DNA of 13,423 bases from an uncultured Deinococcales bacterium (GTDB taxonomy: Bacteria; Deinococcota; Deinococci; Deinococcales; JAAFIG01), in the NCBI GenBank assembly GCA_964247135.1, contig CAXTTL010000133.1, positions 1 to 13,423 on the forward strand, written 5' to 3'. The notes beneath the pieces were generated by a model. It ran no database searches. It saw only the letters and a program-made list of their open reading frames with translations, and was not told the DNA's origin. This document shows positions 1-13,423 of the stretch, one piece after another. A program made the translations under genes and the position numbers. Each line of letters begins with the position of its first letter. The first letter of the stretch is position 1.

Positions 1-1415
1 AAAATAATCACGGGCAACGCCGAGAACACCGCACCCGCCAAAATCAAACCGTAGTCGCCGGTCGAACCGTAAAAACGGTTAAACGAGTTTAAGCCGATGG
101 GCAGGGTGTAAATGTCTTGAGGGTTGGCGAGCACCACCAACGCCCAGAAATACTCGTTCCAGGCGCCCTGCGCGGTGGTAATCACCAGTGCGCCCAGCGC
201 CGGTCCAGCCAGGGGCATGATCACGCGCCAAAAGGTTTGCGAGGTGGTGGCGCCGTCTATTTTGGCGCTTTCCTCGAGTTCGCGGGGCAGGGTTTCAAAA
301 AATTGCTTCATCAAAAACACCGCGCCCGCACCGACCAAACCAATCAACCACAAGCCGACGATGGAATTGAGCAAACTTTGTTGTCCCCAGAGTTTTGAAA
401 GTCCCCAAATGCCGTCTTTGAGCACCAGATAATTGCTGATGAACGTGACCTGCCCTGGGACGGTCATGGTGAAAATAACGAACACGAAAAATGCGTTTTT
501 GAACGGAAAATTCAATCGCGCCATCGCGTAACCCGCCATCGATGCCAGAACGATGGTGCTGGCAATTCGCAAGATCACGAACAAAAACGAATTGATGACC
601 CAATTGAAAAACAGGCTCTGACCCGTGGTGATCGAACGGGTTTCTTTAAACACCCGAGTGTAATTACGAAACACATAACCGATCACGCCAGGCGCAAGAT
701 TGTCATACGATTGCACCCGAGGGTAAGGGTACGGGCGGCTGGCAATTGGCGCGAAGATACGCTCGAGCCGCGTTGGGTCGAGGGTGGCGCTGGTGTAGAC
801 GTGCTCGTTCGGGCTGTTGATGTCCAGCGGCACGCGGTCCATGAAGGGAGCGGGTTTGCTGGGGTCGGTCACGTTTTTGGCGTCTTGCGGGTAATCGACC
901 GTGATTTGATAGGTCACTTTCTGCCCTGGTTTGCCGTCTGGCATACTGGCAGGTACGAGCGCGGTCTGTTTTAACGGCTCGAGTTTGGCGTAATCGGCGG
1001 CGTAATCGGTGGCGGCGAATGCGCCCGCACCCGCGCCGGCGCGGCGTTTGGGGATGGTCACTTCTGGGGCGGTCGGCGTGACGCCCTGGGGCACAAGGTA
1101 GGAGACATTAAAATTGATTTTCGCCCCAGGTTTGAACCCGCCCAGGAAACCGTCGCCACCGCCAGCCGTACCCAGTTGAAATGCCGAAACCCAGTTTGAG
1201 GGGCGCAGTTGTTCAAAGAAAATCCGTGGCGGGTACTCGTCGGGATTGGTTTTGAGGCTCGAGATGGTGCCCATCAACAACGGTCCGATAAAGACAAATG
1301 AGAACAGAATCAGCATGAAGTAAACCCAGCCGGCTCGCGCCCAACGTCGGCGTGCCAGCCAATTGGTGTCTGCTTTTGGATTGGGTTTCAAATTCATTGC
1401 GGCTGTGGCTTCCAT
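1..1415 (-). CDS. Carbohydrate ABC transporter permease (MalG-like, CUT1), 3' end truncated by window edge; carries a large extracytoplasmic insert
   Basis: Missing from the ORF track because no stop lies in the window. Hand translation from ATG 1415, 1 nt after the upstream permease stop, gives MEATAAMNLKPNPKADTNWLARRRWARAGWVYFMLILFSF...INSFLFVILRIASTIVLASMAGYAMARLNFPFK...FLMKQFFETLPRELEESAKIDGATTSQTFWRVIMPLAGPAL...AWNEYFWALVVL...LPIGL...ILAGAVFSALPVII. It has an EAA loop and is open to base 1. Confidence 0.93.
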   Translation of the reverse strand, partial: MEATAAMNLKPNPKADTNWLARRRWARAGWVYFMLILFSFVFIGPLLMGTISSLKTNPDEYPPRIFFEQLRPSNWVSAFQLGTAGGGDGFLGGFKPGAKINFNVSYLVPQGVTPTAPEVTIPKRRAGAGAGAFAATDYAADYAKLEPLKQTALVPASMPDGKPGQKVTYQITVDYPQDAKNVTDPSKPAPFMDRVPLDINSPNEHVYTSATLDPTRLERIFAPIASRPYPYPRVQSYDNLAPGVIGYVFRNYTRVFKETRSITTGQSLFFNWVINSFLFVILRIASTIVLASMAGYAMARLNFPFKNAFFVFVIFTMTVPGQVTFISNYLVLKDGIWGLSKLWGQQSLLNSIVGLWLIGLVGAGAVFLMKQFFETLPRELEESAKIDGATTSQTFWRVIMPLAGPALGALVITTAQGAWNEYFWALVVLANPQDIYTLPIGLNSFNRFYGSTGDYGLILAGAVFSALPVII

Positions 1416-1416
1416 G

Positions 1417-2556
1417 TCAGCTCCCCGTATCCGAAACCACAAAGCGTCGTTGAATCATGACCATGAGGGTGGTGATGACCGCCAAAAAAATCGCGCCAGC
1501 CGTGGCAAGCCCAATTTTGGGCAGTCCGCTCGGGTCAAAGGCTTTTTTGAAAACATAAAACGCCAATGTGACCGTGGACTCGAGCGGGGCGTTTGCGCCC
1601 TCAAAAATTGAGACCTGGTCAAACATTTGCAGTGTGCCGATCACGCCGACGGTCACGACATAAAAGGTGACCGGACGAAGCGCTGGAATGGTGATGTAAC
1701 GAAGTTGCTCTTGCGGGGTTGCGCCGTCAATGCTCGAGGCTTCGTACAAGCTTTTGGAAACGCCTTGCAAGCCTGCCAGGAAGAACAGCATGAGGGTTGG
1801 AATGGTGGTGAAGGTATTTTGAATGATGATAACCAGCAAGGGGTAGGGAATGATGCCCAAGAATTTTTCTCGGGTGGCGATCCAATTTAAGGGTTGCGCA
1901 GGTAGGTCGCCAACCCGAACAATATTGAGTGCGTTTAAAATCAATGTGATGACCAGTCCCACAAAGACCGACGTGAACAGAAAAGCTGGATCAAAAGCCG
2001 TGGCAGGATAACCTTTTGATCGGTCAAACACAACTTGTGCCGCCTGCAAAATTGCGGTAACCACCAAGAATGCCAAAATCAGGCTCGAATGATTGCTAAA
2101 CCAGTTGAGCACAAACGAAAAAATGCCGGTCGGTCTGAACAACCAAATAAAAATCAGGGTAATCACGACGCTCGAGGTGATTGAGGGCATGTAATAGGCG
2201 GTGCGGAAAAACAGCATTCCGCGAAGTTTTTGATTTAAAACCACCGCCAGCACCAGAGCGCCTATGGTTTGCAAGGTGGTGACAATGAGCGAAAACAATA
2301 AGGTATTTGCCAGTGCAATGTTAAAGAGTTGTTCGGTTAAAATATTCTTGTAATTGTCCAAGCCCACAAAATTGGGCGTTTTGAACAAGTCATAATCGGT
2401 AAAGCTGTAATAAATGGTGCGGATGAAGGCGTAACCGAAAAACACCACGATGGTAAATACAAACGGTGCCAGAAAACCGTAAGCCGCCAACGCCTCACGG
2501 TTTTTTTCGTTCCAGAAGGTTTTGGTTGGTTTGTTTTGGGAGCTTGCTTGTGCCAT
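1417..2556 (-). CDS. Carbohydrate ABC transporter permease (MalF-like, CUT1)
   Basis: 379 aa hydrophobic ORF with FVGLDNY, FFRTAYYMP and EAA loop LYEASSIDGA. SD-like GAGGGGAG lies just upstream of the ATG. Confidence 0.95.
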   Translation of the reverse strand: MAQASSQNKPTKTFWNEKNREALAAYGFLAPFVFTIVVFFGYAFIRTIYYSFTDYDLFKTPNFVGLDNYKNILTEQLFNIALANTLLFSLIVTTLQTIGALVLAVVLNQKLRGMLFFRTAYYMPSITSSVVITLIFIWLFRPTGIFSFVLNWFSNHSSLILAFLVVTAILQAAQVVFDRSKGYPATAFDPAFLFTSVFVGLVITLILNALNIVRVGDLPAQPLNWIATREKFLGIIPYPLLVIIIQNTFTTIPTLMLFFLAGLQGVSKSLYEASSIDGATPQEQLRYITIPALRPVTFYVVTVGVIGTLQMFDQVSIFEGANAPLESTVTLAFYVFKKAFDPSGLPKIGLATAGAIFLAVITTLMVMIQRRFVVSDTGS

Positions 2557-2656
2557 GATCTCCCCTCAATCTTTGCTGTGAAAGCCGCTCGAGACGAAAA
2601 AACTTGGTTCGAGCGCGAAATACAGTCTTAAACTCGAGTTTCAAACTTAAACTTTG

Positions 2657-2685
2657 GCTCGAGGCTGAGTGTTTCAGCCTCGAGC
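2657..2685. terminator. Perfect 12-bp stem hairpin just downstream of the solute-binding protein gene (mRNA-stabilising or attenuating element)
   Basis: GCTCGAGGCTGA-GTGTT-TCAGCCTCGAGC, 9 nt after the SBP stop. There is no clean U-tract on the minus strand, so it is more likely a stabiliser than an intrinsic terminator. Confidence 0.6.
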
Positions 2686-2694
2686 GCCTAGAAC

Positions 2695-3915
2695 TTACTT
2701 GATTTGGTCGATCTTGCCTTGAGCGCGTTTCAAAGCCTCATCGACGGTTGAGGTACCGTCCATCACGGATTTGAGCGCCTCATTGACCGCATCGGTGAAA
2801 ACCGGTGGTTGATTGAACGCCACCACATTGCCCGAAGATGCACCGCGAAAAACCGTGTTGTTGGCTTGCGGTTCGGCACCTGGTTTTTTGAAGTACGCGT
2901 TGGCTTGCAGTGACTTGCGGCTTGGCAGTGCCAAACCATTCTCGAGCACGTACTCTTGGGCGGCTTTGGAGGTCAGAAGATTAAGCACTTTGACGGCGGC
3001 ATCGGTGTTTTTGGTGCCTTTGTTGATCGCCCAGGCGACACTGAACAACAGGTTGCCGCGACGTTTGGTGGTGGGGTCGAGCGGAATCAAGCTTGTGCCG
3101 TATTGAAGGTTTGGCGCGTTGTCGCGCAAGAAACCGAGCGCCCAGGCGCCCTCGAAGGCGGTGGCGACTTTGCCAGACTTGATGCAGTCGCCGCCCCAAC
3201 CTGCCGAGATGGTTGAAGGCTGAACGGCAACTTTGGATTTAACCAAATCGGTGTAAAACTGGAACGCCCGCACGAAGCTGGGATCGGTGACTTTTTTGGT
3301 GGGCTTCCAACCCGTGCCGTAGGCGAACGCCGCAAACCTGGCGTAATCGGCTGGGAAACACGTGCCGTAATAGCCTGCGCCGAGCGCCTTTTGCACCTTG
3401 GCGAGCTTGTCCGAGAAGGTGTTCCAATCGTCTTTGTCGTTTGGATAAGCGACTTTTGCTTGGTCGAACAAATCTTTATTGTAATACGTGGCGAGCGTGT
3501 TGAAATCCTTGACGATGCCGTACAGTTTGCCGCCAAAAGTGTACGTTTGGTTGAGGCTCGAGATAAAGTCTGCGCTGCTGACCAAACCGTTCAAAGCCAG
3601 AACCTTACCGCTCGAGACCAGACCTTTGGCGGTGTTGTCTGGCAGGTAAAACACGTCGGGCGCTGTTCCAGCCGAGAGTTGATTGACGATGGCTTTGTCA
3701 TAATCGCCAATCGGCGTGTATTTCACGTCGATGCCGTCTTTGGCGAGTGCGGGTTTGAGAAATTTGTTGATCAAATCGTTGACCAAACCAGTGTCGGTCA
3801 CACCGTCACGACCACCGATCACGATGGTGGTGCCCGTTTGACCCGACACCAAACTCGAGCCTGCACCTGCGACCAGTAAACCAAAAGCTGCCAGTAGAGC
3901 GTATTTCTGTTTCAT
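2695..3915 (-). CDS. Carbohydrate ABC transporter solute-binding protein (family 1)
   Basis: Signal peptide MKQKYALLAAFGLLVAGAGSSLVSG, plus motifs AGTAPDVFY, YYNKDLFDQAKV, AFEGAW and AWAINKGTKN. Start placed at ATG 3915 (GGAGG 7 nt upstream) rather than 3921, which abuts the SD. Confidence 0.93.
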   Translation of the reverse strand: MKQKYALLAAFGLLVAGAGSSLVSGQTGTTIVIGGRDGVTDTGLVNDLINKFLKPALAKDGIDVKYTPIGDYDKAIVNQLSAGTAPDVFYLPDNTAKGLVSSGKVLALNGLVSSADFISSLNQTYTFGGKLYGIVKDFNTLATYYNKDLFDQAKVAYPNDKDDWNTFSDKLAKVQKALGAGYYGTCFPADYARFAAFAYGTGWKPTKKVTDPSFVRAFQFYTDLVKSKVAVQPSTISAGWGGDCIKSGKVATAFEGAWALGFLRDNAPNLQYGTSLIPLDPTTKRRGNLLFSVAWAINKGTKNTDAAVKVLNLLTSKAAQEYVLENGLALPSRKSLQANAYFKKPGAEPQANNTVFRGASSGNVVAFNQPPVFTDAVNEALKSVMDGTSTVDEALKRAQGKIDQIK

Positions 3916-3970
3916 GTTCATTCCTCCGTTGAGTGTGGGCGAATTGCCGAAGGTCGGATAAAAACTGCGT

Positions 3971-4018
3971 GAAGAGAATTGTGGTCTTAATTTGGAAGAG
4001 AATTGTGGTCTTAATTTG
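3971..4018. repeat. Perfect 24-bp tandem duplication spanning the lacI stop codon
   Basis: GAAGAGAATTGTGGTCTTAATTTG at 3971-3994 and 3995-4018. Confidence 0.95.
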
Positions 4019-5000
4019 TACGTGCTCCACTCGAGGCTCTGACAATCAATTTGACCGGCACGAGCGCACTCGAGACTTTTTTGCCTGCCATGCTTTCCAA
4101 GAGCATTTCGGCGGCGCGGATGCCAATGGTGCTGATATCTTGGCGCACGGTGCTGAGGGCTGGCTTAAATCCAGCCGCACTCGGCAGGTCATCAAAACCG
4201 GTTACGGAAACGTCCCAGGGAATTCTTAAACCCTCGTCCTCGAGCGCCATGATGGCGCCGAATGCCATTTCGTCGCTGGCGGCGGCAATCGCACTGAATT
4301 CGAGTTGGGCAGCCAGCGCACGGCGCACCGCGCGGTAGCCTCCGACTTCGGTGAATTCGCCGTCCCAGACAAGTAAATTGTCAAAAGGCAGTTGAGCCTC
4401 GAGCATTCCTTTGCGGTAGCCTTCGATCCGTTGCCGCGAGGCTTGACCCGTCGATGCGCCCGTCAAGTGCGCAATGCGCTTGTGACCCAGTTTGGTCAAA
4501 TGGCGCACCGCCTCAAACAAACCCGAGATGTTGTCCACGTCCACCCAGGGCGCCCTTTCGGCATGTTCCAAACTGTGCCCAACCATCACAAACGGCACGC
4601 CCCTCGCCTCGAGTTGATTTGGGCGCGAATCGTCGAGATGCACGCCGAGCAAAATCACGCCGTCCGATTCAGCCTCAAGCATGGCTGGGTCGTAACCCGA
4701 GAAAATTCTGGTGCTGTACCCCTCGCTCGAGAACCTGGACTCGAGTGCGTCGCGCAAAATGCCGTAATAGGTGTTGCCGCGCCGCTCGTCGCCGTCGAGG
4801 GACAAGCCGATCACATGCTTGCCGCGCCGCGCCAAGTTTCTGGCTCCTGGGTCGGGCACATAACCCAACTGCGTCATCACATCAAGGACACTGCTGCGGG
4901 TTTCACCATTGACCCCGTCTCGGGCGTTTAAAACCCTCGAGACGGTGCCTTTGGAGACACCGGCAGCGCGTGCAACTTCTTGGATCGTGACTTTCGCCAT
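4011..5000 (-). CDS. LacI/GalR-family transcriptional regulator
   Basis: N-terminal HTH MAKVTIQEVARAAGVSKGTVSRVLN, with HLTKLGHKRIAH and IPWDVSVTGFDD downstream. The true start is ATG 5000; the ORF-track extension to 5078 runs over the promoter. Confidence 0.96.
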   Translation of the reverse strand: MAKVTIQEVARAAGVSKGTVSRVLNARDGVNGETRSSVLDVMTQLGYVPDPGARNLARRGKHVIGLSLDGDERRGNTYYGILRDALESRFSSEGYSTRIFSGYDPAMLEAESDGVILLGVHLDDSRPNQLEARGVPFVMVGHSLEHAERAPWVDVDNISGLFEAVRHLTKLGHKRIAHLTGASTGQASRQRIEGYRKGMLEAQLPFDNLLVWDGEFTEVGGYRAVRRALAAQLEFSAIAAASDEMAFGAIMALEDEGLRIPWDVSVTGFDDLPSAAGFKPALSTVRQDISTIGIRAAEMLLESMAGKKVSSALVPVKLIVRASSGARTN

Positions 5001-5033
5001 GCGAAACCTTTCAGACTGTTTGATGGGTTTTTT

Positions 5034-5045
5034 GTAACCGGTTAC
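5034..5045. promoter_or_regulatory. LacI-type operator palindrome
   Basis: Perfect palindrome GTAACCGGTTAC with central CG, typical of LacI-family sites. It overlaps the predicted transcription start of the lacI-ABC operon. Confidence 0.8.
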
Positions 5046-5049
5046 GGAA

Positions 5050-5078
5050 ACTTTACTCCCCGGATTCTCAAACGTCAA
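5050..5078 (-). promoter_or_regulatory. Sigma70-type promoter of lacI-ABC operon
   Basis: TTGACG (5078-5073), 17 nt spacer, TAAAGT (5055-5050) on the minus strand, directly upstream of the operator. Confidence 0.75.
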
Positions 5079-5133
5079 GAGGAAATTTGAACAATTTCAG
5101 AACCGAAATCGGTTTCTGCTCCGAGCCAAGTCC

Positions 5134-5162
5134 TTCTCAGCGCGAGAAAACCCGAGTAGACT
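5134..5162 (+). promoter_or_regulatory. Putative promoter of riboswitch-purH
   Basis: TTCTCA (5134-5139), 17 nt spacer, TAGACT (5157-5162). The predicted TSS near 5168-5169 coincides with the 5' end of riboswitch P1. Confidence 0.5.
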
Positions 5163-5167
5163 AAAGC

Positions 5168-5241
5168 CGTTGAAGTGACTGGCGATAAACACGGGAAACC
5201 GTGGGGAAATTTCAACGCATCACAGATCGCTCGCCTGGGTC
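5168..5241 (+). ncRNA. ZMP/ZTP riboswitch (pfl motif) aptamer
   Basis: P1 CGTTGAA/TTCAACG, conserved GACTGGCG, P2 CACGG-GAAA-CCGTG followed by GGG, and P3 GATC-GCTCGCCTG-GGTC with CGCC able to pair with GGCG (pseudoknot). It lies upstream of purH, a canonical target. Confidence 0.92.
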
Positions 5242-5289
5242 GGACAACTCGAGAACATCAAATTCGCCCCTCGAGCCACCAGGAGATGT

Positions 5290-6798
5290 ATGAAGCGAGC
5301 ATTGTTAAGCGTGTCCGACAAAAACGGTCTTGAAGCCTTCGCCAAAGGTTTACTCGAGCAAGATTTTGAGCTGGTCAGCACGGGCGGAACGTTTAAAACC
5401 CTCCAGGCGGCTGGTTTGAACGTCACTTATATTTCCGATGTCACCGGTTTTCCAGAAATTCTCGAGGGGCGCGTCAAAACCCTCCACCCGAACGTCCACG
5501 GCGGCATTCTGGCAAAACGCAATCCCGAACACTTCAAAGAACTCGAGGCGCAAAACATCAAACCGATTGACTTGGTGTGCGTCAATTTGTACCCGTTTCG
5601 CGGAACGGTCGCCAAAGTCGATGTCACCCTTTCAGACGCGCTCGAGAACATTGACATCGGTGGTCCGACCATGATTCGCGCCGCCGCCAAAAACTTCCCG
5701 AGCGTCTGGGTTGTGGTTGACCCAAGCGATTACAGTTTGGTGCTCGAAAAACTGGAAAGTGACGATCAGACATTGCGCCAACGACTGGCGTTCAAAGCCT
5801 TCTCGCACACCGCCAGTTACGATGCCGCAATCACCGAATATCTGGGCGACAATGAACTTTTGCCAAGTGAAAAACCGCTCGAATTGAGCCGCGTCAAAAC
5901 CTTGCGTTACGGCGAAAACCCGCACCAGCAAGCCGCGCTGTACCGTCAAGGAAGCTCGAGCGGCGCGGTCTTGGATGCCAAAGTCTTGGCGGGCAAAGAG
6001 ATGGGCTTTAACAATTACGCCGATGCCGACGCCGCCTGGTTGCTGGTTTCAGAGTTCTCGGGTCCCGCCTGTGTTGCCGTCAAGCACGCCAACCCTTGCG
6101 GCGTGGCGCTTGCCGACAACGCCAAAACCGCCTGGGAACGGGCGCGAGATGCCGACACGCTCTCGGTCTTTGGCGGCGTGGTCGCACTCAATCAAGCCGT
6201 CACGCTCGAGGTTGCCATGTCCACCAAAGGCACGTTCTTGGAGGTTTTGATCGCGCCAAAAATTGAAGCCGACGCGCTCGAGTGGTTCAAAACCAAAAAA
6301 CCCGATTTGCGCGTGCTCGAGGCGGGAAGTGCCAAATTTGGCAACCTCGAGTTAAAACCGATCTCGGGTGGTTTCCTGGCGCAAGACCGCGATGCCAGGG
6401 TTTGGTCGGATTTATGCCCCGAAGTCGTAACCAACCTACAACCCACCAAACAACAATGGCTCGACCTCGAGTTTGCCTGGTACGTCGGCAAGCACGCCCG
6501 CAGCAACAACGTGGTGCTGGCAAAAGACGGCGTGACCGTCGGTTTGGGGGCGGGGGCAGTCTCGAGAATCTGGGCTGCCGAGCGAGCCATCTTGAACGCA
6601 GCAGACCGCGCCATTGGTGCCGTGCTCTCGAGCGAGGCGTTTTTTCCATTTGACGATGTGGTGCGGGTTGCCGCCGCCGCAGGCGTCAAAGCCATCATTC
6701 AACCTGGCGGCGCGAAACGCGATCCCGAGGTGATTGCTGCCGCGAACGAACTGGGCATTGCGATGGTGTTGACAGGCTCGAGACACTTTAAGCATTAA
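5290..6798 (+). CDS. purH: Bifunctional AICAR transformylase / IMP cyclohydrolase
   Basis: MKRALLSVSDK, STGGT, GRVKTLHP, ENIDIGGPTMIRAAAKN, LRYGENPHQ, VKHANPCG, AFFPFDD, IIQPGG and C-terminal RHFKH. SD AGGAG at 5281-5285. Confidence 0.98.
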   Translation: MKRALLSVSDKNGLEAFAKGLLEQDFELVSTGGTFKTLQAAGLNVTYISDVTGFPEILEGRVKTLHPNVHGGILAKRNPEHFKELEAQNIKPIDLVCVNLYPFRGTVAKVDVTLSDALENIDIGGPTMIRAAAKNFPSVWVVVDPSDYSLVLEKLESDDQTLRQRLAFKAFSHTASYDAAITEYLGDNELLPSEKPLELSRVKTLRYGENPHQQAALYRQGSSSGAVLDAKVLAGKEMGFNNYADADAAWLLVSEFSGPACVAVKHANPCGVALADNAKTAWERARDADTLSVFGGVVALNQAVTLEVAMSTKGTFLEVLIAPKIEADALEWFKTKKPDLRVLEAGSAKFGNLELKPISGGFLAQDRDARVWSDLCPEVVTNLQPTKQQWLDLEFAWYVGKHARSNNVVLAKDGVTVGLGAGAVSRIWAAERAILNAADRAIGAVLSSEAFFPFDDVVRVAAAAGVKAIIQPGGAKRDPEVIAAANELGIAMVLTGSRHFKH

Positions 6799-6820
6799 AA
6801 AAAGGGCTAAAAATAACGTG

Positions 6821-6847
6821 AGGCTCAAGTTTTAACCACTCGAGCCT
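6821..6847 (+). terminator. Probable purH terminator hairpin
   Basis: AGGCTCAAGT-TTTAACC-ACTCGAGCCT (9/10 pairs) followed by TATGGTTTTT. Confidence 0.5.
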
Positions 6848-6857
6848 TATGGTTTTT

Positions 6858-6947
6858 GCGTATCGCCTGTGGCATGGACACGCGGTAAAATCACACCAGA
6901 AAAATTGCCTTCAATCCAGCTCAAGCGCAGTGGCGATGCGCCGCTAC
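6858..6947. repeat. Degenerate GTAG-type REP-like inverted repeat
   Basis: GCGTATCGCC (6858-6867) pairs with GGCGATGCGC (6932-6941). The right end reads GTAGCGGCGCATCGCCACTGCGC on the minus strand. Confidence 0.35.
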
Positions 6948-7027
6948 AGAACAACGATTTTGAAATTTGAGACTCGGGCTTTTGATTTCATGATTGGTTT
7001 GCATAAAAATGCTATGCCAATTGTTTT

Positions 7028-7936
7028 CTAAAGATTCAAACCCATCGCTTTTGCCGCCCACGGACCAATAAACCAGACCGCCATCATGGCAAAACCGATG
7101 TACGGAATGGCGTTGATCACGGGTTCGTTGGCGTTGACCTTTGATCCGCTACGGATGCCTTTGATCACGGCTGGAATGAAGATGGTGGCGACCAAAGTCA
7201 GGGCAAAGATTGCCACCCAAACTGGCACGAGCCTGTTGATGGTGATGGCATAAACGCCAGCCAGCACGCTCAAACTGACCAACAACATCATGACTTGGTG
7301 CGTGAGGTGCTCGCCGAGCAAACTGGCGGTGTGGTTGACGCCCGCTTTGATATCACCCTCGAGATCGCGGACTTCGTTAAACAGTTGCCCGTAAGAGCTG
7401 GCGGCAACCATGCTGATGAACGGCGCGAGCCACAGGTCATTCAGGCTTTGGTTGTAACTGAAATAGGCTGCCAGAAATTGCAGTCCCGCCAACATCAAAC
7501 CGTGCGAGATCACGTCCACAATTGGCACGCTTTTCAAACGCAAGGGACGCCAGGAGTAAAGATGCCCAAAGATCAGACACAAAATTCCAAAAATGGTTGG
7601 GTACAAACCGAGCGGAATATAAAGCAGAATTGACAGTCCGGCAACGCCAAACGAAATCAAGTTGCCTTCGGTTTTGGTCAACATCCCGTTGGTGATCGGG
7701 TTGCGCAGGGCTTTCTCGGGCGTGTGGGCATCGTCCGGGGCATCTTCGACATCGTTAAAGGCAAAGGCAAAACCGACGCTCAGCCAATTGGCGAGCACCA
7801 ACAGAAATATGCGCCCATCGAGAACACTTTCTCGAGCGCCAGCCACAGCACCCAAGCAGGTGGTGAACACGACCGAACCCGCATAATCCTTAAACCGCAT
7901 CAAACGCCAGAAACCTGCGAACTTGCTCAATCCCAT
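7028..7936 (-). CDS. UbiA-superfamily membrane prenyltransferase, substrate unknown
   Basis: 302 aa multi-TM protein with Asp-rich motifs NDVEDAPDD and NEVRDLEGD, plus YSWRPLRLK. Confidence 0.88.
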   Translation of the reverse strand: MGLSKFAGFWRLMRFKDYAGSVVFTTCLGAVAGARESVLDGRIFLLVLANWLSVGFAFAFNDVEDAPDDAHTPEKALRNPITNGMLTKTEGNLISFGVAGLSILLYIPLGLYPTIFGILCLIFGHLYSWRPLRLKSVPIVDVISHGLMLAGLQFLAAYFSYNQSLNDLWLAPFISMVAASSYGQLFNEVRDLEGDIKAGVNHTASLLGEHLTHQVMMLLVSLSVLAGVYAITINRLVPVWVAIFALTLVATIFIPAVIKGIRSGSKVNANEPVINAIPYIGFAMMAVWFIGPWAAKAMGLNL

Positions 7937-8074
7937 CCCCCTCGAGACGCCACATCTGTTGACGCCTTGACCTGACGAAGAAGCTTTACCAGCTTCAAAT
8001 TCTCAAGAGTTTACCCCACAAACCGCATGAGAGTGTTCAGTACAGTTTTAAAGTCTTATGAACACAAACGCTCG

Positions 8075-8707
8075 TTATGGTTTCAAGTCTGGCTCGAGAT
8101 GCCCCAAACGGTGAATCAATGCCCTTAAAGTGCTGGCTTTGAGTTTTAAGGCGGCGCGGTTGACGATCAAGCGATACGACAGATGCGCAAAAACCTCGAG
8201 TTCGTGAAGGTTGTTCTCTTTTAAGGTGCGCCCCGTTTGTACCACGTCAACGATTGCGTCCACCAAACCCGTTAACGCCGCCAGCTCGAGTTTACCGTTC
8301 AGTTGGATCACATCCGCCGGAATGCCGCGCTCACCCAGCATTTTTCGGGCGGTGCGGGCGTATTTGCTGGCAACGCGTTCGATGCGGCTGCTCGAGTTTT
8401 GAATCCCGATCAAGCTGAGGCGGTAACTGTCGCCGCCCAAATCGAGTGGCTCAAAAACGTCGCGCCCAGACTCGAGAATCCAGTCCTTACCGACGATGCC
8501 GCAGTCGGCAACGCCCAAATCCACATACACTGGAACGTCGGGGTCTTTGACCTCGAGAATGCGCAAATTGCCAAATTCGTGGCTGAGGCTGCGCGAACCC
8601 TGAAAATCTGGTATCTCGAGTCCAGCGCGGCGCAAGAGTTGCAAGGCGTAATGTTTGCTGCGTTCGCCGCTCGGCAGGGCGACGGTCAGTTTCTGCTCGG
8701 GTTTCAC
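8075..8707 (-). CDS. hisG: ATP phosphoribosyltransferase, short form
   Basis: DVPVYVDLGVADCGIVGKD, EPLDLG and ELAALTGLVDAIVDVVQTGRTL. Start is GTG 8707 overlapping the hisZ stop (GTGA), giving 210 aa with no C-terminal regulatory domain. Confidence 0.93.
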   Translation of the reverse strand: MKPEQKLTVALPSGERSKHYALQLLRRAGLEIPDFQGSRSLSHEFGNLRILEVKDPDVPVYVDLGVADCGIVGKDWILESGRDVFEPLDLGGDSYRLSLIGIQNSSSRIERVASKYARTARKMLGERGIPADVIQLNGKLELAALTGLVDAIVDVVQTGRTLKENNLHELEVFAHLSYRLIVNRAALKLKASTLRALIHRLGHLEPDLKP

Positions 8708-9864
8708 AGGTTCTCCAGGACGGTGCCGAGGTTTTGGGTTTCTCGAGTGGCAAGGTTGAGCACTTGATCGCCCATCGCAAGATATAAAATACCGCGCTTT
8801 AACGCGTAAGCCTCGAGTTCTGGCGTCTCGGGCGTCCAAGCATTTTCGACCCGCCAGCCTTTGGCGCGAAGGAATGTTGCAGCGCTCGAGTCGGCGATGG
8901 CTTGCGGCGGTTTGATCGGTTCCAAGCCGCCGAGTGCGGTCATGATGCGTTCCAAACCCAGCGCGAAACCGCAGGCGGGCAGGCTAGCGGTTTGCTGATT
9001 TGCGCCGTCGTAACGTCCACCGCCGACCAGCGGCTGACCGAAATCGGGCGTGTACGCCTGGAAAATCATGCCCGAATAATAATCGAGCCGTCTGGCAATG
9101 CCCACATCGAACAAGACCCCTTTTTGCGGCAGTTGTTCGGCGACCGCGCTAAGTTCCTCGAGCGCCAGTTTGGCGGCATCGTTTAACGCATATTGTTTTG
9201 CCTCGAGCAGCACTTCTTGGCTGCCGTACAGGTCAATGAGCGCCATCACCGAGGCTCGGGTCTTGCCGCCGATACCGTGAAGCTCGAGTTCGGCTGCCAG
9301 CTCTGGGGCGTTTTTACGATGAACCAAGGCGCGTAACTTTTCAATCCCCTCAGCCTCGAGTTTGGTCTCCGTGAGCACCGCGCGAACAAAACCAGGATGC
9401 CCCAATTCGACGGCGACGCTCGAGAATCCGACGGCTTGCAAACACTCGAGCGCCAAAGTCACAACCTCACTGTCGGCGAGCGGGGTGCTGACGCCCAAGA
9501 GTTCCGCCCCAACCTGGGTAAATTCGCGTTGCCGTCCAAGTTCTGCATCTCGAGCGCGGGTCCAAAGCTGACCGGCGTAGCGCAATCGCAAGGGAAACGG
9601 ACCTTGAGGGAAGTTTGCCCGCACCAAACCCGAGATGGCGGTGGTGTACTCGCCGCGAAGTGCCAGCACCGTGCCGTCACGGTCCACCAATTTGAAGCTC
9701 TTGTCGGCTTGAGGGTGATTGGGGTCATACACCTCGAGCGAAGGGGTTTGAACGGCTTCGTAGCCCCAAGCGCTTAAAACACCCTCGAGTTTGGAACGAA
9801 GTGTTTCGCGCCATTCCCATTCGGGCGGCAAGGTAAAACGGGTTCCATCGGGAATCAATCGCAT
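8704..9864 (-). CDS. hisZ: ATP phosphoribosyltransferase regulatory subunit
   Basis: HisRS-like motifs IPDGTR, WGYEAVQTPSLE, GRQREFTQVGAELLG, DYYSGMIF, GGGRYD and ACGFALGLERI. Coupled to short hisG; AAGGA upstream. Confidence 0.95.
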   Translation of the reverse strand: MRLIPDGTRFTLPPEWEWRETLRSKLEGVLSAWGYEAVQTPSLEVYDPNHPQADKSFKLVDRDGTVLALRGEYTTAISGLVRANFPQGPFPLRLRYAGQLWTRARDAELGRQREFTQVGAELLGVSTPLADSEVVTLALECLQAVGFSSVAVELGHPGFVRAVLTETKLEAEGIEKLRALVHRKNAPELAAELELHGIGGKTRASVMALIDLYGSQEVLLEAKQYALNDAAKLALEELSAVAEQLPQKGVLFDVGIARRLDYYSGMIFQAYTPDFGQPLVGGGRYDGANQQTASLPACGFALGLERIMTALGGLEPIKPPQAIADSSAATFLRAKGWRVENAWTPETPELEAYALKRGILYLAMGDQVLNLATRETQNLGTVLENL

Positions 9865-9934
9865 GAAAAATATCCTTTAACTCAAGATACTTTGGGAATT
9901 TTCCCTCACAACCTCAAGAATTCGTTGTCACTCA

Positions 9935-9995
9935 GGGCGCAGCAAGCGACTGTGCCCATTAGGTGCATTTTACAGTCAAAAAGCAGCGCCCCTAC
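9935..9995. repeat. Degenerate GTAG-type REP-like palindromic element
   Basis: Hairpin GGGCGCAG-CAAGCGA-CTGTGCCC (9935-9957) and GCAGCGCCCCTAC (9983-9995; GTAGGGGCGCTGC on the minus strand), which can also pair with 9935-9943. Confidence 0.4.
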
Positions 9996-10046
9996 GAACC
10001 CATATGTTAGGGGATACGAATTTAGCTCTCCACCCTCTATCATCCC

Positions 10047-11684
10047 TTACTCGACCACCACAGGAATAATCACAGGATTGCGCCCCGTGGCTTTGCGCAC
10101 AAAACGCCGTACCGCAAAGTAAATATCGTCCCTGGCATTTTCGAGCGAGCGTTTTTCTCTTGATGCACGTTCCAAGCTGGTCAGGGCATCCTCTTTGATC
10201 GCGTCGAACAGTTCGTTGTTGTGCGTCACAAAACCCCTCGAGCTGATTTCGATGTGCGGCGTCGGGTGCATCACGCCAATCACCACCAGCACACCGTCGC
10301 CCGCCATGCTCTGGCGATCCTCGAGGATGTCGTCGGTGACATCGCCAACGCCCAGACCATCGACGTAAACCGCGCCAGCCGTGACCTTGCCCGCAATCAG
10401 GAAATCGTCTTGTGAGACGCGCACCACGTCGCCGTTTTTGGCAATGATGGTCCGTTTTGGTGGCACCGGAATGCTTTCGGCGAGGCGTTTGTGATTGGTC
10501 TGCTGACGTGCCTCGCCGTGAAATGGCAGGAAGAATTTGGGTTTGGCAAGGTTCAGAATCATTTTCAGTTCTTCTTGCGAACCGTGACCCGAGGCGTGAA
10601 CTTTATAGGTCGGCGGGTAAAAGACGATTGCGCCAAGTTCATACAACCTGTTGATGACAGCATTGACCGCCTCTTCGTTGCCAGGGATCGGACTCGAGGA
10701 CAAGATGATCGTGTCGCCAGGCTTGATGTGCAATTTCGCGTGGTTGCCGAACGCCAACCTCGAGAGCACGCTCATCGGTTGCCCCTGGCTGCCCGTGCAA
10801 ATAAATAAGGCTTGCGAATCTTGCAAGTCCACCAGTTCGTCGGTGCTGATGAGGCGGTCTTTCAACTCGAGGTAGCCGAGTTCCTGGGCGAGTTGCGCGT
10901 ATTTGAGCATACTGCGCCCCTCCATGACCACGCGCCGCCCGTTTTTCTCGCCGCTCGAGATGATGTTTTGCACACGGTGAATGTGGCTGGCGAAGGTCGT
11001 GACAAAAACCCGCCCTTTGGCTTGGGAAATCAGTTTGTCAATTTCGACAGCAATGTCGGCTTCGGATGGGGTCAAACCGACCCGTTCGGCATTGGTCGAA
11101 TCCGAAATCAGCAGCAGCACGCCGTCCGCCCCAGCCTGCGAGATTTTCTCGAGGTGGCTGGTTTTACCGTCGGCTGGGTTTTGATCGAGCTTGAAATCGC
11201 CGGTGTGAATCACGCGCCCGATGGGGGTGTGAATGATCAGTCCAGAGTTGTCGGGGATGCTGTGGGTCATCAAAAACATGTCCACGGTAAAGCTCTTGCC
11301 GATTTTGATGCGGGCGTCGGTGGAAATCTCGCGCATGTCCACGTCGGAACTGGGAATGCCAAACTCGGAAAATTTCTCGCGCAGCAAACCCAAAGTCAGT
11401 TTCGCGCCGTAGAGCGGCACTTTTGGCAGACGCGGCAAAATGTACGGCAGTCCGCCGATGTGGTCTTCGTGACCGTGCGTGATGATAAAGGCTTTGATCA
11501 GATGCGCATTCTCGAGCAAATAATCAATTTTGGGAATAATCAGGTCAATGCCTGGCTGGTTGGAATCCGGAAACGCCAGACCGCCGTCCACCACAATAAT
11601 TTCGTCATCGTAACGAAAGCACATCATGTTCTTGCCAATTTCGCCGAGTCCACCGAGTGGAATGACATCCAAGTGTTTGCTCAT
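10047..11684 (-). CDS. rnj: Ribonuclease J
   Basis: IPLGGLGEIGKNM, ITHGHEDHIGG, HSIPD, HTGDFKLD, SDSTNAE, FASHIHRVQ, CTGSQGQP, SPIPGNE and VHASGH; 545 aa. Confidence 0.97.
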   Translation of the reverse strand: MSKHLDVIPLGGLGEIGKNMMCFRYDDEIIVVDGGLAFPDSNQPGIDLIIPKIDYLLENAHLIKAFIITHGHEDHIGGLPYILPRLPKVPLYGAKLTLGLLREKFSEFGIPSSDVDMREISTDARIKIGKSFTVDMFLMTHSIPDNSGLIIHTPIGRVIHTGDFKLDQNPADGKTSHLEKISQAGADGVLLLISDSTNAERVGLTPSEADIAVEIDKLISQAKGRVFVTTFASHIHRVQNIISSGEKNGRRVVMEGRSMLKYAQLAQELGYLELKDRLISTDELVDLQDSQALFICTGSQGQPMSVLSRLAFGNHAKLHIKPGDTIILSSSPIPGNEEAVNAVINRLYELGAIVFYPPTYKVHASGHGSQEELKMILNLAKPKFFLPFHGEARQQTNHKRLAESIPVPPKRTIIAKNGDVVRVSQDDFLIAGKVTAGAVYVDGLGVGDVTDDILEDRQSMAGDGVLVVIGVMHPTPHIEISSRGFVTHNNELFDAIKEDALTSLERASREKRSLENARDDIYFAVRRFVRKATGRNPVIIPVVVE

Positions 11685-11734
11685 GCGAAACAGCCGCTCT
11701 GTTTGAAAGCTCGAGGGTCAACATATTGCTTCAT
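11681..11734 (-). CDS. Putative 17-aa leader peptide MKQYVDPRAFKQSGCFA coupled to rnj
   Basis: AAAGGAG-TTTT-ATG at 11734. Its TGA (11683-11681) overlaps the rnj ATG as ATGA, and rnj has no good SD of its own. Confidence 0.6.
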   Translation of the reverse strand: MKQYVDPRAFKQSGCFA

Positions 11735-11803
11735 AAAACTCCTTTGGAACGTTTGAGCCTAAAACTCAAGATTGCTGCTCGAGATTCCCCCTCGGGCGAC
11801 TGG

Positions 11804-11831
11804 GGTCTAACTGGTTTGAGGTCTAACTGGT
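11804..11831. repeat. 12-bp direct repeat, 16-bp period
   Basis: GGTCTAACTGGT at 11804-11815 and 11820-11831. Confidence 0.85.
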
Positions 11832-11879
11832 ACGGCGTGCGCATCAATTTGCTGCGACCGATGCCGTCGCGGTGTTGGC

Positions 11880-11907
11880 AGTCTACCAGACCCGTCAAGC
11901 CTGCCAA
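11880..11907 (-). promoter_or_regulatory. Putative promoter of leader-rnj transcript
   Basis: TTGGCA (11907-11902), 16 nt spacer, TAGACT (11885-11880) with extended -10 TG. Same -10 hexamer as the purH promoter. Confidence 0.4.
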
Positions 11908-11928
11908 ACGGCTTGGAAGGTTGAGCGC

Positions 11929-11934
11929 TAAAAT
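11929..11934 (+). promoter_or_regulatory. -10 element of probable leaderless GNAT transcript
   Basis: TAAAAT ends 5 nt before ATG 11940 and there is no SD. Confidence 0.5.
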
Positions 11935-11939
11935 GAGCC

Positions 11940-12797
11940 ATGACCGAATTCAATGTGCGCTCCATACTCGAGTTTAACGCCGTCCAAATCGCGTCTATTT
12001 TGAACGATTGCTTTGAAGGCTATTTGATGCCCGTGCAGTTCACGGCGCAGGCGGTGAATTTGCGGTTTCGGGCGGAGCATCTGGATGCCGCCGCGAGCTT
12101 TGTGTACCTCAAAAACGACAAACCTCGAGGCATCATTTTGGTCGCAAGGCGCGGCAAGACCAGCCGCATTGCCGCGATGGGCGTGGCGACCGAGGCTCGA
12201 GGGCAAGGTTTGGGGCGCTTGATGCTGACTGAAGCCCTAAATACGGCTCGAGATCGGGGCGAGGGCAGCCTGAAACTGGAAGTCTTTGAACAGAACACTC
12301 GAGCGCTGGGCTTGTACCAATCGCTCGGTTTTGAAATTTCGCGGCGTTTGGTGGGTTACCAAAGACCCGCAAGAACTGGTCAACCCGAGGATTTGCTGGA
12401 AACAGACGCGCTCGAGTTCTCGCGGGTCGCGGCAATCGAAGGCGAAGCCGACCTGCCTTGGCAACTGATGCCAGAAAACTTCGCGGGTCAAACGTTTCAA
12501 GCCTTCCAACTCGAGGATAAGGCGTTCGCTTTGGTGTCGCTGGCTGGCTCGGGTTTTGTCCTGTGGGCAATCGTGGTGCGCCGTGCCTTCAGACGTCAAG
12601 GTTACGGGCGGCGCTTGCTGGAGGGTCTAAGCAATGATTTTGAAGGCAAAGAATGCCGAATTATTCAAGTGGTTCCCGAAAATCTTGCGCCAGGGTTTTT
12701 CTCGAGCTTGGGTTTTAAAGTGCTAGAATTAACGCAATTCGAGATGAAGCATGGTTTGGGATCTAAATTCGGCAAGGACGGGTCGAACGAAACCTGA
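11940..12797 (+). CDS. Tandem (two-domain) GNAT-family N-acetyltransferase
   Basis: 285 aa with two acetyl-CoA-binding motif A sequences (ARGQGLGRLML, FRRQGYGRRLL) and motif B sequences (NTRALGLYQSLGF, FFSSLGF). Confidence 0.9.
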   Translation: MTEFNVRSILEFNAVQIASILNDCFEGYLMPVQFTAQAVNLRFRAEHLDAAASFVYLKNDKPRGIILVARRGKTSRIAAMGVATEARGQGLGRLMLTEALNTARDRGEGSLKLEVFEQNTRALGLYQSLGFEISRRLVGYQRPARTGQPEDLLETDALEFSRVAAIEGEADLPWQLMPENFAGQTFQAFQLEDKAFALVSLAGSGFVLWAIVVRRAFRRQGYGRRLLEGLSNDFEGKECRIIQVVPENLAPGFFSSLGFKVLELTQFEMKHGLGSKFGKDGSNET

Positions 12798-12965
12798 AGG
12801 CTCGTATCTTGGCGTGCCCATGAACACGCTCACCCGAGGGCTGCAAGCTTGTATGAAGTGGATTTTGCGTTCACAATGTGAAAAAAGCTCGCAAAAGCCG
12901 TTTGTGCAGTTGTAAGCTGTAAAAATCTTGTCATCGGTGCCGACAAACAATTTGGGAGAATTGCT

Positions 12966-13423
12966 GTGTCAGAAAAAAAACCAAACAGCTCCAAGAACCT
13001 GTCAAAACACGAACTTGATCGGCGCTTAAAAGAAGCCACCATGCTCAAACAAATCGTCTCGACGGCAGGTGCGCCACTCGAGCCGGTCACGGTCTTGAAC
13101 GTGATCTGCGCCGAATTGGTCGAGGTGGTCGGCGTCGAACACGCGGGTTTCGCCCGTTTGGACGACGATGGGCTGGCGCTCACCGTGGTTTCGGAATTTG
13201 GTTTGCGCGGCGCGATCAACCTTGGGTTGCGAATTGGACTCGAAGGCAACGAGATCACCAAACAGGTGATCGGAACGCGCCAACCGATTGGCGTTTTGGA
13301 CGCCCAGAACGACCCCCGAATGGGTGCAGGACGCGAAGCCACCCGCGCTTACGGCGTCTCGAGTTTGCTGATCGTACCGATCATTGCGGGCGAGCGTGTG
13401 GTCGGCACGCTTGGACTGGACAG
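12966..13423 (+). CDS. GAF-domain signalling protein, N-terminal part (truncated by window edge)
   Basis: Not in the ORF track. GGGAG precedes GTG 12966. Translation: VSEKKPNSSKNLSKHELDRRLKEATMLKQIVSTAGAPLEPVTVLNVICAELVEVVGVEHAGF...QVIGTRQPIGVLDAQNDPRM...YGVSSLLIVPIIAGERVVGTLGLD. It has the GAF signature (DxxxDPR...SLLxVPI...VVGxL) and is open to the end. Confidence 0.85.
   Translation, partial: MSEKKPNSSKNLSKHELDRRLKEATMLKQIVSTAGAPLEPVTVLNVICAELVEVVGVEHAGFARLDDDGLALTVVSEFGLRGAINLGLRIGLEGNEITKQVIGTRQPIGVLDAQNDPRMGAGREATRAYGVSSLLIVPIIAGERVVGTLGLD

Follow-up and report, generated by a model that had tools for sequence, protein, structure and literature searches.

Introduction

For three decades the highly iterated palindrome (HIP) of cyanobacteria, HIP1 (GCGATCGC), which occurs roughly once per kb, has defied explanation and has been regarded as peculiar to cyanobacteria. 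Here we analyse a window of 13,423 nucleotides from an uncultured Deinococcales bacterium (GenBank assembly GCA_964247135.1; the window is the whole stretch from position 1 to 13,423 of contig CAXTTL010000133.1, forward strand), in which an original prediction, made from the letters alone, had noticed a HIP1-like abundance of another palindrome, the hexamer CTCGAG.

Several other systems involve words that are unusually common or rare. The uptake signal sequences (USS) of Pasteurellaceae and the DNA uptake sequences (DUS) of Neisseriaceae are asymmetric words of 9-12 bases that occur about once per kb and whose uptake specificity has been shown experimentally; they are thought to spread by molecular drive and form inverted pairs in terminators, as the DUS pairs of Neisseria do. 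The targets of restriction enzymes are usually avoided. In the Dcm/Vsr very-short-patch repair of E. coli, the repair enzyme raises the frequency of the methylase target, an effect that is small and is accompanied by depletion of the T-containing neighbour.

HIP1 itself is reported to raise transformation up to 100-fold when methylated, and it has been proposed as an uptake sequence. Elhai (2015, PMC4390886) assigns to each alternate cyanobacterial HIP its own specific methyltransferase and proposes a repair system. No account of CTCGAG hyper-abundance came up in full-text searches of the literature; methylation of CTCGAG in cultured relatives may be listed in the supplements of methylome surveys. 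A term search of Elhai's survey of alternate HIPs did not find CTCGAG, and the papers that name both CTCGAG and Deinococc- concern methylated motifs rather than abundance.

Results

The window is contig C133 of the genome under study (G000; 5.09 Mb, 386 contigs, 52.7% GC). An exact count gave 81 copies of CTCGAG in the window (6.0/kb), spanning 273 to 13363, whereas dinucleotide-preserving shuffles of the same DNA (n = 200) held 2.30 on average and 6 at most; the original hand count of about 81 was therefore right. The copies start at 273, 762, 978, 1258, 1579, 1733, 2171, 2588, 2633, 2658, 2679, 2941, 3557, 3611, 3854, 4030, 4069, 4239, 4398, 4608, 4726, 4740, 4936, 5248, 5270, 5353, 5461, 5542, 5641, 5955, 6205, 6277, 6316, 6346, 6466, 6561, 6627, 6777, 6839, 7358, 7831, 7941, 8093, 8195, 8285, 8391, 8471, 8552, 8615, 8742, 8812, 8885, 9157, 9202, 9283, 9355, 9419, 9445, 9549, 9733, 9784, 10237, 10320, 10693, 10759, 10866, 10954, 11148, 11511, 11710, 11778, 11967, 12124, 12196, 12247, 12298, 12411, 12510, 12701, 13077 and 13358. 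By class, 41 are read as CTC GAG (Leu-Glu), 7 as xCT CGA Gxx and 23 as xxC TCG AGx, and 10 are intergenic. The use of all three frames had been claimed from the sites at 12124, 12196, 12247 and 12298, which are indeed xCT CGA Gxx, and from 12701, which is xxC TCG AGx; all nine sites that had been listed as intergenic are so, and the list was short by one, 11710.

The same abundance was found throughout the genome. G000 contains 33,925 copies where 1,371 are expected from base composition (observed/expected ratio, O/E, 24.75; 6.7/kb), CTCGAG is its top hexamer with its own one-base extensions as runners-up, and 4.0% of all bases lie inside a copy. The density per contig has a median of 6.8/kb and a minimum of 2.56/kb, so that each of the 386 contigs has at least 2.56/kb and the enrichment extends far beyond the window. 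It had also been noted that one-mismatch variants are rare. This is true of the window, but the rarity is at chance level and no depletion was seen genome-wide (O/E 0.5-1.8): the highest neighbours were TTCGAG/CTCGAA at ~1.7 and CCCGAG/CTCGGG at ~1.4, with TTCGAG at 1.76 and CTTGAG at 1.16, and the low counts of CTAGAG and CTCTAG are presumably due to the CTAG that they contain. A Markov model built from 5-mers gave an O/E of 1.24 for CTCGAG in G000, which is uninformative because the 5-mers themselves hold the signal. The transfer RNA (tRNA) genes (aragorn, 66 calls, 5,129 bases) contain 10 sites, or ~2/kb, under the genome average and over the ~0.27/kb expected from composition. After the CTCGAG-derived hexamers, the next most enriched words in G000 were GGTTTT/AAAACC and CAAAAA/TTTTTG, at 5-6 times expectation.

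With genes called by a crude self-trained caller (4,715 genes, 88% coding; the eleven genes of the window were placed sensibly), the density in G000 was 6.61/kb in coding and 7.02/kb in intergenic DNA. The copies comprise 18,509 CTC GAG, 4,424 xCT CGA Gxx, 6,779 xxC TCG AGx and 4,201 intergenic sites. As a control, synonymous codons were permuted inside each gene (10 shuffles), which keeps the protein and the per-gene codon usage, the latter being already inflated by CTCGAG itself. The 29,682 coding copies compare with 4,110 +/- 45 under this shuffle, a 7-fold excess; the shuffle explains 14% of the coding copies. As had been argued from its intergenic copies, protein coding alone cannot account for the motif: the shuffle falls far below the observed number and the spacers are as rich as the genes. 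Because coding and intergenic densities are equal, all three frames are used and the codon-preserving shuffle leaves a 7-fold excess, the cause lies at the level of DNA; it works on the DNA word and not on proteins.

Codon choice in G000 changes sharply wherever the word can be completed. CTC makes up 92% of Leu codons ahead of GAG and 13-19% elsewhere; the share of GAG among Glu codons is 94% when CTC precedes, falls to 39% behind any other Leu codon and to 30-34% behind a non-Leu residue. CGA is used for 82.7% of Arg residues between xCT and Gxx, compared with 30% when the preceding codon ends in CT but the next does not start with G, and 11-13% when the preceding codon does not end in CT. 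Likewise, TCG accounts for 87.9% of Ser codons between xxC and AGx and for 15-23% otherwise. As a result, 77% of Leu-Glu pairs are spelled CTCGAG, whereas 5% would be expected from context-free codon use, relative to which CTCGAG is preferred 31-fold over CTCGAA and 20-fold over CTTGAG. If the synonymous alternatives are at equilibrium, this would correspond to a scaled advantage of ~3 per site (the ln of the 20- to 31-fold shift).

The amino-acid sequence is affected as well. Leu-Glu occurs 24,022 times where 10,252 are expected (2.3-fold, ~13,800 extra pairs) and is the most over-represented dipeptide, whereas the reverse pair, Glu-Leu (10,326), is as frequent as expected; Met-Glu (O/E 0.51) and Val-Glu (O/E 0.73) are depleted. 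The effect can be followed in single genes. The RNase J gene of the window (10050 to 11684, minus strand) carries 8 sites and was used as a marker across 28 genomes, 16 from the family of G000 and 12 outgroups. Some of its sites are common to 12-14 of the 16 family genomes and to none of the 12 outgroups, and at alignment column 543 the family has Leu-Glu, spelled CTCGAG, where 11 of the 12 outgroups have Leu-Ala or Leu-His. In the GNAT acetyltransferase gene (11940-12794), the four xCT CGA Gxx sites between 12124 and 12303 on the plus strand use the otherwise uncommon Arg codon CGA. The case shows the extent to which a DNA-level force can override protein coding.

The sites are also maintained between species, as judged from conservation and gain/loss counts that all come from the single 13-kb window. 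It could be aligned with DNA from four congeneric species at 86-88% nucleotide identity, and at 70-74% for third codon positions. In these, 72/81, 66/78, 38/50 and 22/29 sites are kept (76-89%), compared with 44-52% of control hexamers of the same frame class; for intergenic sites the numbers are 10/10 and 9/9 (G001 and G005), 3/4 and 2/2, compared with 32-46% of controls. Within the trio G000, G001 and G005, a site is present in all three genomes at 61 of the 96 positions where at least one of them has it, whereas the same holds for 33.6% of control positions. Losses on the individual branches of the trio numbered 9/70, 5/66 and 9/70, and the loss of CTCGAG is slower than that of other hexamers by a factor of two to three. 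Where species differ at a site, the difference is mostly a single transition. Of the shared one-mismatch pre-sites, 5 of 25 turned into sites in G001, whereas none did in G000 (n = 16) or in G005 (n = 19); no active creation bias is demonstrable from these counts because the numbers of pre-sites are too small.

To place G000 in its phylum, we compared 19 genomes of its uncultured Deinococcales family (five genera, with RNase J gene GC from 47% to 62%) and counted CTCGAG and its reversal GAGCTC in 201 Deinococcota genomes. All 19 family genomes have 4.3-6.8 CTCGAG/kb across their range of GC content. At the RNase J loci of the nearest named records (metagenome-assembled genomes labelled 'Deinococcales bacterium') the density was 5-9 sites/kb, and at 18 loci from other phyla it was 0-0.4. 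Outside the family, CTCGAG reaches up to 3.6/kb, a moderate excess, in several genomes of genera g13-g15, of families f4 and f2 and in G196; it lies at 0.6-1.6/kb, about level with GAGCTC, in the 30 sampled genomes of genus g9; and in genus g7, the largest of the phylum, all 83 sampled genomes avoid it (0.01-0.25/kb).

The moderate excess has the same character as the saturation seen in the family, as judged from codon-preserving and intergenic tests on 40-140 kb per genome. In G196, 426 in-frame copies compare with 130 after shuffling, 13 and 31 off-frame copies with 2.4 and 8.7, and 51 intergenic copies with 6.3, and the Leu-Glu O/E is 1.85. The corresponding numbers were 360 vs 199 in-frame, 21 and 25 vs 2.2 and 3.6 off-frame, 43 vs 7.0 intergenic and a Leu-Glu O/E of 1.46 in G025; 188 vs 86, 24 and 48 vs 1.6 and 11.4, 42 vs 7.3 and 1.26 in G165; and 40 vs 28, 5 and 11 vs 0.8 and 3.4, 9 vs 1.8 and 1.24 in the 40 kb of G019. 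In G028, a member of g7, 5 sites were found in 100 kb, with 4 in-frame copies where 20 were expected. From the weaker excess in G196, G025, G165 and G019 it follows that the family is the extreme of a tendency across much of the phylum; one large genus went the opposite way.

We then looked at what surrounds the hexamer. In G000 the flanks are near random beyond +/-3, with G at -1 in 39% and A at -3 in 37% of copies; around intergenic copies they are symmetric, 47% of these having A at -3 and 46% having T at +3, compared with a background of 27.5%. These preferences vary between lineages, which rules out an extended motif, and therefore the hexamer by itself is the unit. Nearest-neighbour gaps, measured over the 386 contigs, are near exponential (mean 148 bases, coefficient of variation, CV, 0.96, longest 2,644 bases). 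In coding DNA, a second site within ~20 bases is scarce (gaps of up to 10 bases make up 0.8%, compared with 6.5% expected), and a spacing of 6 bases, which would create GAGCTC, is never seen in G000.

Close pairs are in excess in intergenic DNA, where 204 of 802 pairs form perfect stems of at least 9 bp, compared with 268 of 4,936 coding pairs. The window has an example at 2656 to 2690 (minus strand), a terminator-like hairpin with a CTCGAG in each arm (2658 and 2679), a 12-bp perfect stem and a 5-nt loop. It lies directly 3' of the sugar-binding-protein gene (2698-3921, minus), and its predicted centroid structure has -24 kcal/mol (z -3.9), with 1 of 200 shuffles folding as well. Three further pairs of intergenic sites are at 2588 and 2633 (2588 to 2638, in the spacer between a permease gene and the binding-protein gene, kept in G001 and G005), at 5248 and 5270 (5248 to 5275, upstream of purH) and at 11710 and 11778 (11710 to 11783, between the RNase J and acetyltransferase genes). 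The gene content of the window is ordinary. Read by eye from their translations, the eleven genes encode two sugar ABC permeases and a binding protein, a LacI-type regulator, PurH, a UbiA-type prenyltransferase, HisG, HisZ, RNase J, the GNAT acetyltransferase and a GAF-domain protein.

The longest stretches of G000 without CTCGAG, islands of 1.5-2.6 kb, hold accessory genes, among them sugar-uptake operons, genes for an O-antigen ligase and for a fusion of reverse transcriptase and protease, and open reading frames that match no Pfam family. The fusion (G000:C4:51606-53231) is a 542-residue reverse transcriptase joined to a trypsin-like protease in a site-free stretch adjoining a tRNA gene, and it may be an imported defence gene.

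DNA that the cells have met is recorded in their clustered regularly interspaced short palindromic repeat (CRISPR) arrays. G000 has an array of 17 repeats (G000:C221:6963-8141) and a fragment of one (G000:C9:1-170), and the 37-base repeat itself contains CTCGAG; related arrays are present in G002, G003, G007 and G008, and related repeats in at least four genera of the family. In 91 unique spacers of the family, which offer 2,707 possible positions, we found 23 copies of CTCGAG (8.5/kb) where composition predicts 0.74. They are spread over spacer positions 1-28, and GAGCTC does not occur in any of the 91. The CRISPR-sampled DNA is therefore as CTCGAG-rich as the host: whether phage, plasmid or kin, the DNA met and recorded by family cells carries the word at the host's density.

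Part of this DNA can be traced. One of the 91 spacers matches G000 outside the arrays, in a thioredoxin-like gene (G000:C25:927-961, 35 identical of 37 bases), and it is possible that it is self-targeting or was drawn from kin DNA. In one array of G002, 2 of 35 spacers have counterparts on chromosomal contigs elsewhere in the family, in one case in a PAS/GAF sensor gene. Matches to self or kin chromosomal genes amount to 3 of 51 spacers examined, and therefore kin DNA reaches the CRISPR machinery; dropping these three leaves ~7.7/kb. Searches for other sources gave no matches, either in IMG/VR (three spacer cores) or in metagenome contigs (two spacer cores), and no HK97-type capsid or portal Pfam match was found in the 5 family genomes searched. 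When IMG/VR was scanned with a three-site pattern, most of the matches listed were phages of high GC content, where GAGCTC is frequent as well. A match in G002:C222 was rejected as a protospacer, being a solitary CRISPR repeat (6150-6188); at 820-5248 the same chromosomal contig encodes components (eCIS core, Pvc16) of an extracellular contractile injection system. Among family methyltransferase genes, 11 of 12 have 3.6-7.5 sites/kb and the remaining one (39% GC) has none.

The original prediction had proposed a system acting on CTCGAG in this lineage. This remains reasonable, but no such system was found: the XhoI endonuclease family (PF04555) and Vsr (PF03852) were each found in none of the 19 family genomes, and searches for C5, Eco57I, N6/N4, N6_Mtase and D12 methyltransferases gave none that is universal in the family, although non-orthologous enzymes of the same specificity would escape such a search. 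C5 methyltransferases occur in 18 of the 19 genomes (absent from G008) and N6/N4 enzymes in 17 (absent from G011 and G015), and most of those found look like restriction cassettes. A true XhoI-family gene with an adjacent N6/N4 methyltransferase is present in G021, a relative from another family (G021:C1:75199-76562), whose genome still has 1.7 CTCGAG/kb. G000 has no close homologue of this methyltransferase, its best match being 25% identical. A search of three g7 genomes for the XhoI family was negative.

Of the 7 methyltransferase genes of G011, which is assembled in one contig, only one has a close homologue in G000. The homologue is a D12-class enzyme adjoining a 364-residue gene that matches Pfam RE_SacI (E 8e-7; G000:C320:1064-2985). 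The nuclease occurs in 11 of the 19 family genomes, its sequence identities being unrelated to genus boundaries, and the methylase was found in 0 of 10 further family genomes. Because it is patchy and exchanged within the family, the SacI-like pair was ruled out as the CTCGAG system. RE_SacI has Pfam matches in 3 of the 201 phylum genomes and does not track GAGCTC avoidance. GAGCTC, which is CTCGAG reversed, has 0 copies in the 5.09 Mb of G000 where ~1,370 are expected, and among the 18 other genomes of the family 15 have 3-25 copies; judging from the domain match, the putative SacI-like restriction-modification pair fits this absence. Many other palindromes are nearly absent from G000 as well (GGGCCC 1, CGGCCG 3, AGGCCT 4, CGTACG 5, GGATCC 7, CCGCGG 11, CAGCTG 15, GCATGC 17, ACTAGT 18 and AGATCT 25 copies, with 1,100-1,700 expected each), a pattern that suggests a long history with many restriction systems.

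Discussion

CTCGAG is a highly iterated palindrome of the HIP type, and a word-specific force at the level of DNA creates and keeps ~34,000 copies of it. The original HIP1-like reading, that of an iterated palindrome independent of frame and not derived from coding, was upheld by density, frame, shuffle, conservation and codon-context tests. What is new is the weaker signature in four other sampled lineages of the phylum, the avoidance in its largest genus and the CTCGAG-rich CRISPR spacers.

As to the nature of the force, we tentatively favour, by analogy with known uptake systems, a signal for the uptake or recombination of kin DNA, and rank it ahead of methylation-linked repair and of a self mark; it is a possible explanation rather than a probable one. 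A DNA-handling system of the lineage would read CTCGAG on incoming or recombining DNA, kin DNA would then be preferentially taken up or recombined, and the word would spread by molecular drive; methylation of CTCGAG may be part of the recognition. The terminator-like stem pairs in intergenic DNA, the kin-derived spacers and the site-free accessory islands fit such a signal, as do the methylation-dependent effect of HIP1 on transformation and its proposed role in uptake. All 5 family genomes tested encode ComEC and DprA, but this says little because 10-11 of 14 control genomes also have them. Several observations weigh against this explanation. No reader protein or receptor was identified, and one cultured representative of the phylum has been described as taking up DNA independently of its sequence. 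With its six palindromic bases, the word is shorter and several times denser than the uptake signals, which are asymmetric and 9-12 bases long, and its near-exponential nearest-neighbour spacing (CV 0.96) shows no sign of regular placement. In addition, if most of the 91 CTCGAG-rich spacers derive from phages, whose DNA enters by injection, an uptake drive leaves their richness unexplained, whereas a process inside the cell or mimicry would explain it.

Such a process is offered by methylation-linked repair of the kind proposed by Elhai, in which a methyltransferase would mark CTCGAG, a methyl-dependent short-patch repair would make or restore sites, and the word would accumulate in all resident replicons. 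It would account for the rich spacers (8.5/kb) and for the mobile methyltransferase genes with 3.6-7.5 sites/kb (11 of 12), it parallels the pairing of HIPs and methyltransferases described by Elhai 2015 (PMC4390886), and the family is rich in methyltransferases (C5 in 18/19, N6/N4 in 17/19). The 5 of 25 shared pre-sites that became sites in G001 agree with it, small as these numbers are, but none of 16 did so in G000 and none of 19 in G005. Vsr was found in none of the 19 genomes, and the deamination products TTCGAG (1.76) and CTTGAG (1.16) are not depleted, contrary to what a Vsr-type system would lead one to expect. Moreover, no methyltransferase is common to all genomes (G008 lacks C5 enzymes; G011 and G015 lack N6/N4), and the single one of the 7 in G011 with a close relative in G000 belongs to the SacI-like pair and is found in 0 of 10 further genomes. 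On balance we regard this explanation as rather doubtful. A sequence-encoded self mark or nucleoid site seems unlikely. Here an abundant protein would bind CTCGAG every ~150 bases and organise the chromosome or shield its DNA from a host nuclease, with selection acting on local density and mobile elements mimicking it. The coverage is even (no contig below 2.56/kb, longest gap 2,644 bases in 5.09 Mb), the scarcity of second sites within ~20 bases inside genes is as expected from a footprint or from diminishing returns, spacer-sampled DNA resembles the host in richness and in the absence of GAGCTC, and the flanks of intergenic copies are symmetric (47% A at -3 and 46% T at +3, background 27.5%). 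However, no candidate protein is known, flank preferences depend on lineage so that only the 6-base core is common, the spacing is otherwise near random (CV 0.96) and site-free islands of 1.5-2.6 kb persist.

The two remaining explanations are scarcely credible. The abundance could be a by-product of codon, dipeptide or base composition, namely of Leu-Glu written in favoured codons. In GC-rich relatives CTC and GAG are indeed favoured, the shuffle in G025 already yields 199 of its 360 in-frame copies, and in genus g9 CTCGAG is about as common as GAGCTC. In G000, however, neither codon is favoured outside the motif (CTC 13-19% for Leu, GAG 30-34% for Glu), the shuffle explains 14% of coding copies, and the reversed word GAGCTC has 0 copies; the intergenic density of 7.0/kb, the codon-preserving shuffle and the context-dependent codon choice refute this account. 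Just as remote is the idea that the sites are copies of a small mobile or repetitive extragenic palindromic (REP)-like repeat containing CTCGAG, to which the intergenic sites in hairpins and the CTCGAG of the CRISPR repeat might point. It is refuted by flanks that are near random beyond +/-3 and by the placement of 88% of copies in genes, in all frames; the G000 assembly also has no repeats of at least 600 bases. The rest of the probability belongs to causes outside those listed.

A broader idea, which we consider improbable, is that an old CTCGAG-reading system runs through the phylum and, depending on lineage, drives saturation, moderate excess or near absence (g7). Within the family, DNA would be labelled as 'own' by how densely it carries CTCGAG and not by any chemical mark; the chromosome would be kept covered at intervals of ~150 bases, and incoming phages, plasmids and kin DNA, as sampled by the CRISPR spacers, would carry the label too. 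If true, this would be a sequence-encoded self mark, or an uptake/recombination code strong enough to rewrite ~14,000 amino-acid pairs. Whatever the cause, the density of CTCGAG distinguishes resident from imported DNA, and in metagenomes it may be of use in linking phages and plasmids with these hosts. The graded series within one phylum (saturated, moderate, neutral and avoided) allows phylogenetic profiling for the responsible genes, and the genomes of moderate excess include complete assemblies of a single or few contigs (G025 and G165), so that experimental hosts are possible if these are cultured strains.

Compared with described systems, CTCGAG differs from a target of the XhoI type, although its recognition word is identical to that of XhoI/PaeR7I and the relative G021 has an XhoI-family gene with an N6/N4 methyltransferase: the word is enriched 25-fold in G000, and the pattern of avoidance is found instead for CTCGAG in g7 and for GAGCTC and many other palindromes in G000. 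Unlike in Dcm/Vsr repair, the T-containing neighbours are not depleted and Vsr was not found in the 19 family genomes. Unlike REP or miniature inverted-repeat transposable element (MITE)-like repeats, CTCGAG shows no conservation beyond its core and is not mainly intergenic, 88% of copies being genic. It resembles USS and DUS in being family-wide, in occurring in genes and spacers and as inverted pairs in terminators, and in being scarce in recently imported DNA, a likeness at the level of sequence; it differs from them as a 6-base palindrome with near-random flanks at 6.7/kb.

The closest likeness is to HIP1 (GCGATCGC) and the alternate HIPs, which are also short GC-rich palindromes, hyper-abundant throughout a lineage and present in all frames and in non-coding DNA. 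As described for HIPs by Elhai 2015 (PMC4390886) and Xu et al. 2018 (PMC5861425), CTCGAG is kept between genomes above control words and above its codons elsewhere, and it sits in a CRISPR repeat, as HIP1-related sequences do in a Synechocystis CRISPR repeat according to PMC6604393. For HIP1 a long-range periodicity has been reported; the comparison for CTCGAG was made on nearest-neighbour gaps only, which are near exponential. No cognate orphan methyltransferase for CTCGAG was found in the family searches, unlike for HIP1. CTCGAG is another word in another phylum, has six bases rather than eight and visibly reshapes dipeptide composition, and it reaches 6.7/kb, whereas the abundance of HIP1 is given by Xu et al. 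2018 (PMC5861425) as one that can exceed one motif per gene. CTCGAG is thus a second case of a HIP, denser than the first, in an unrelated phylum and built on a different word.

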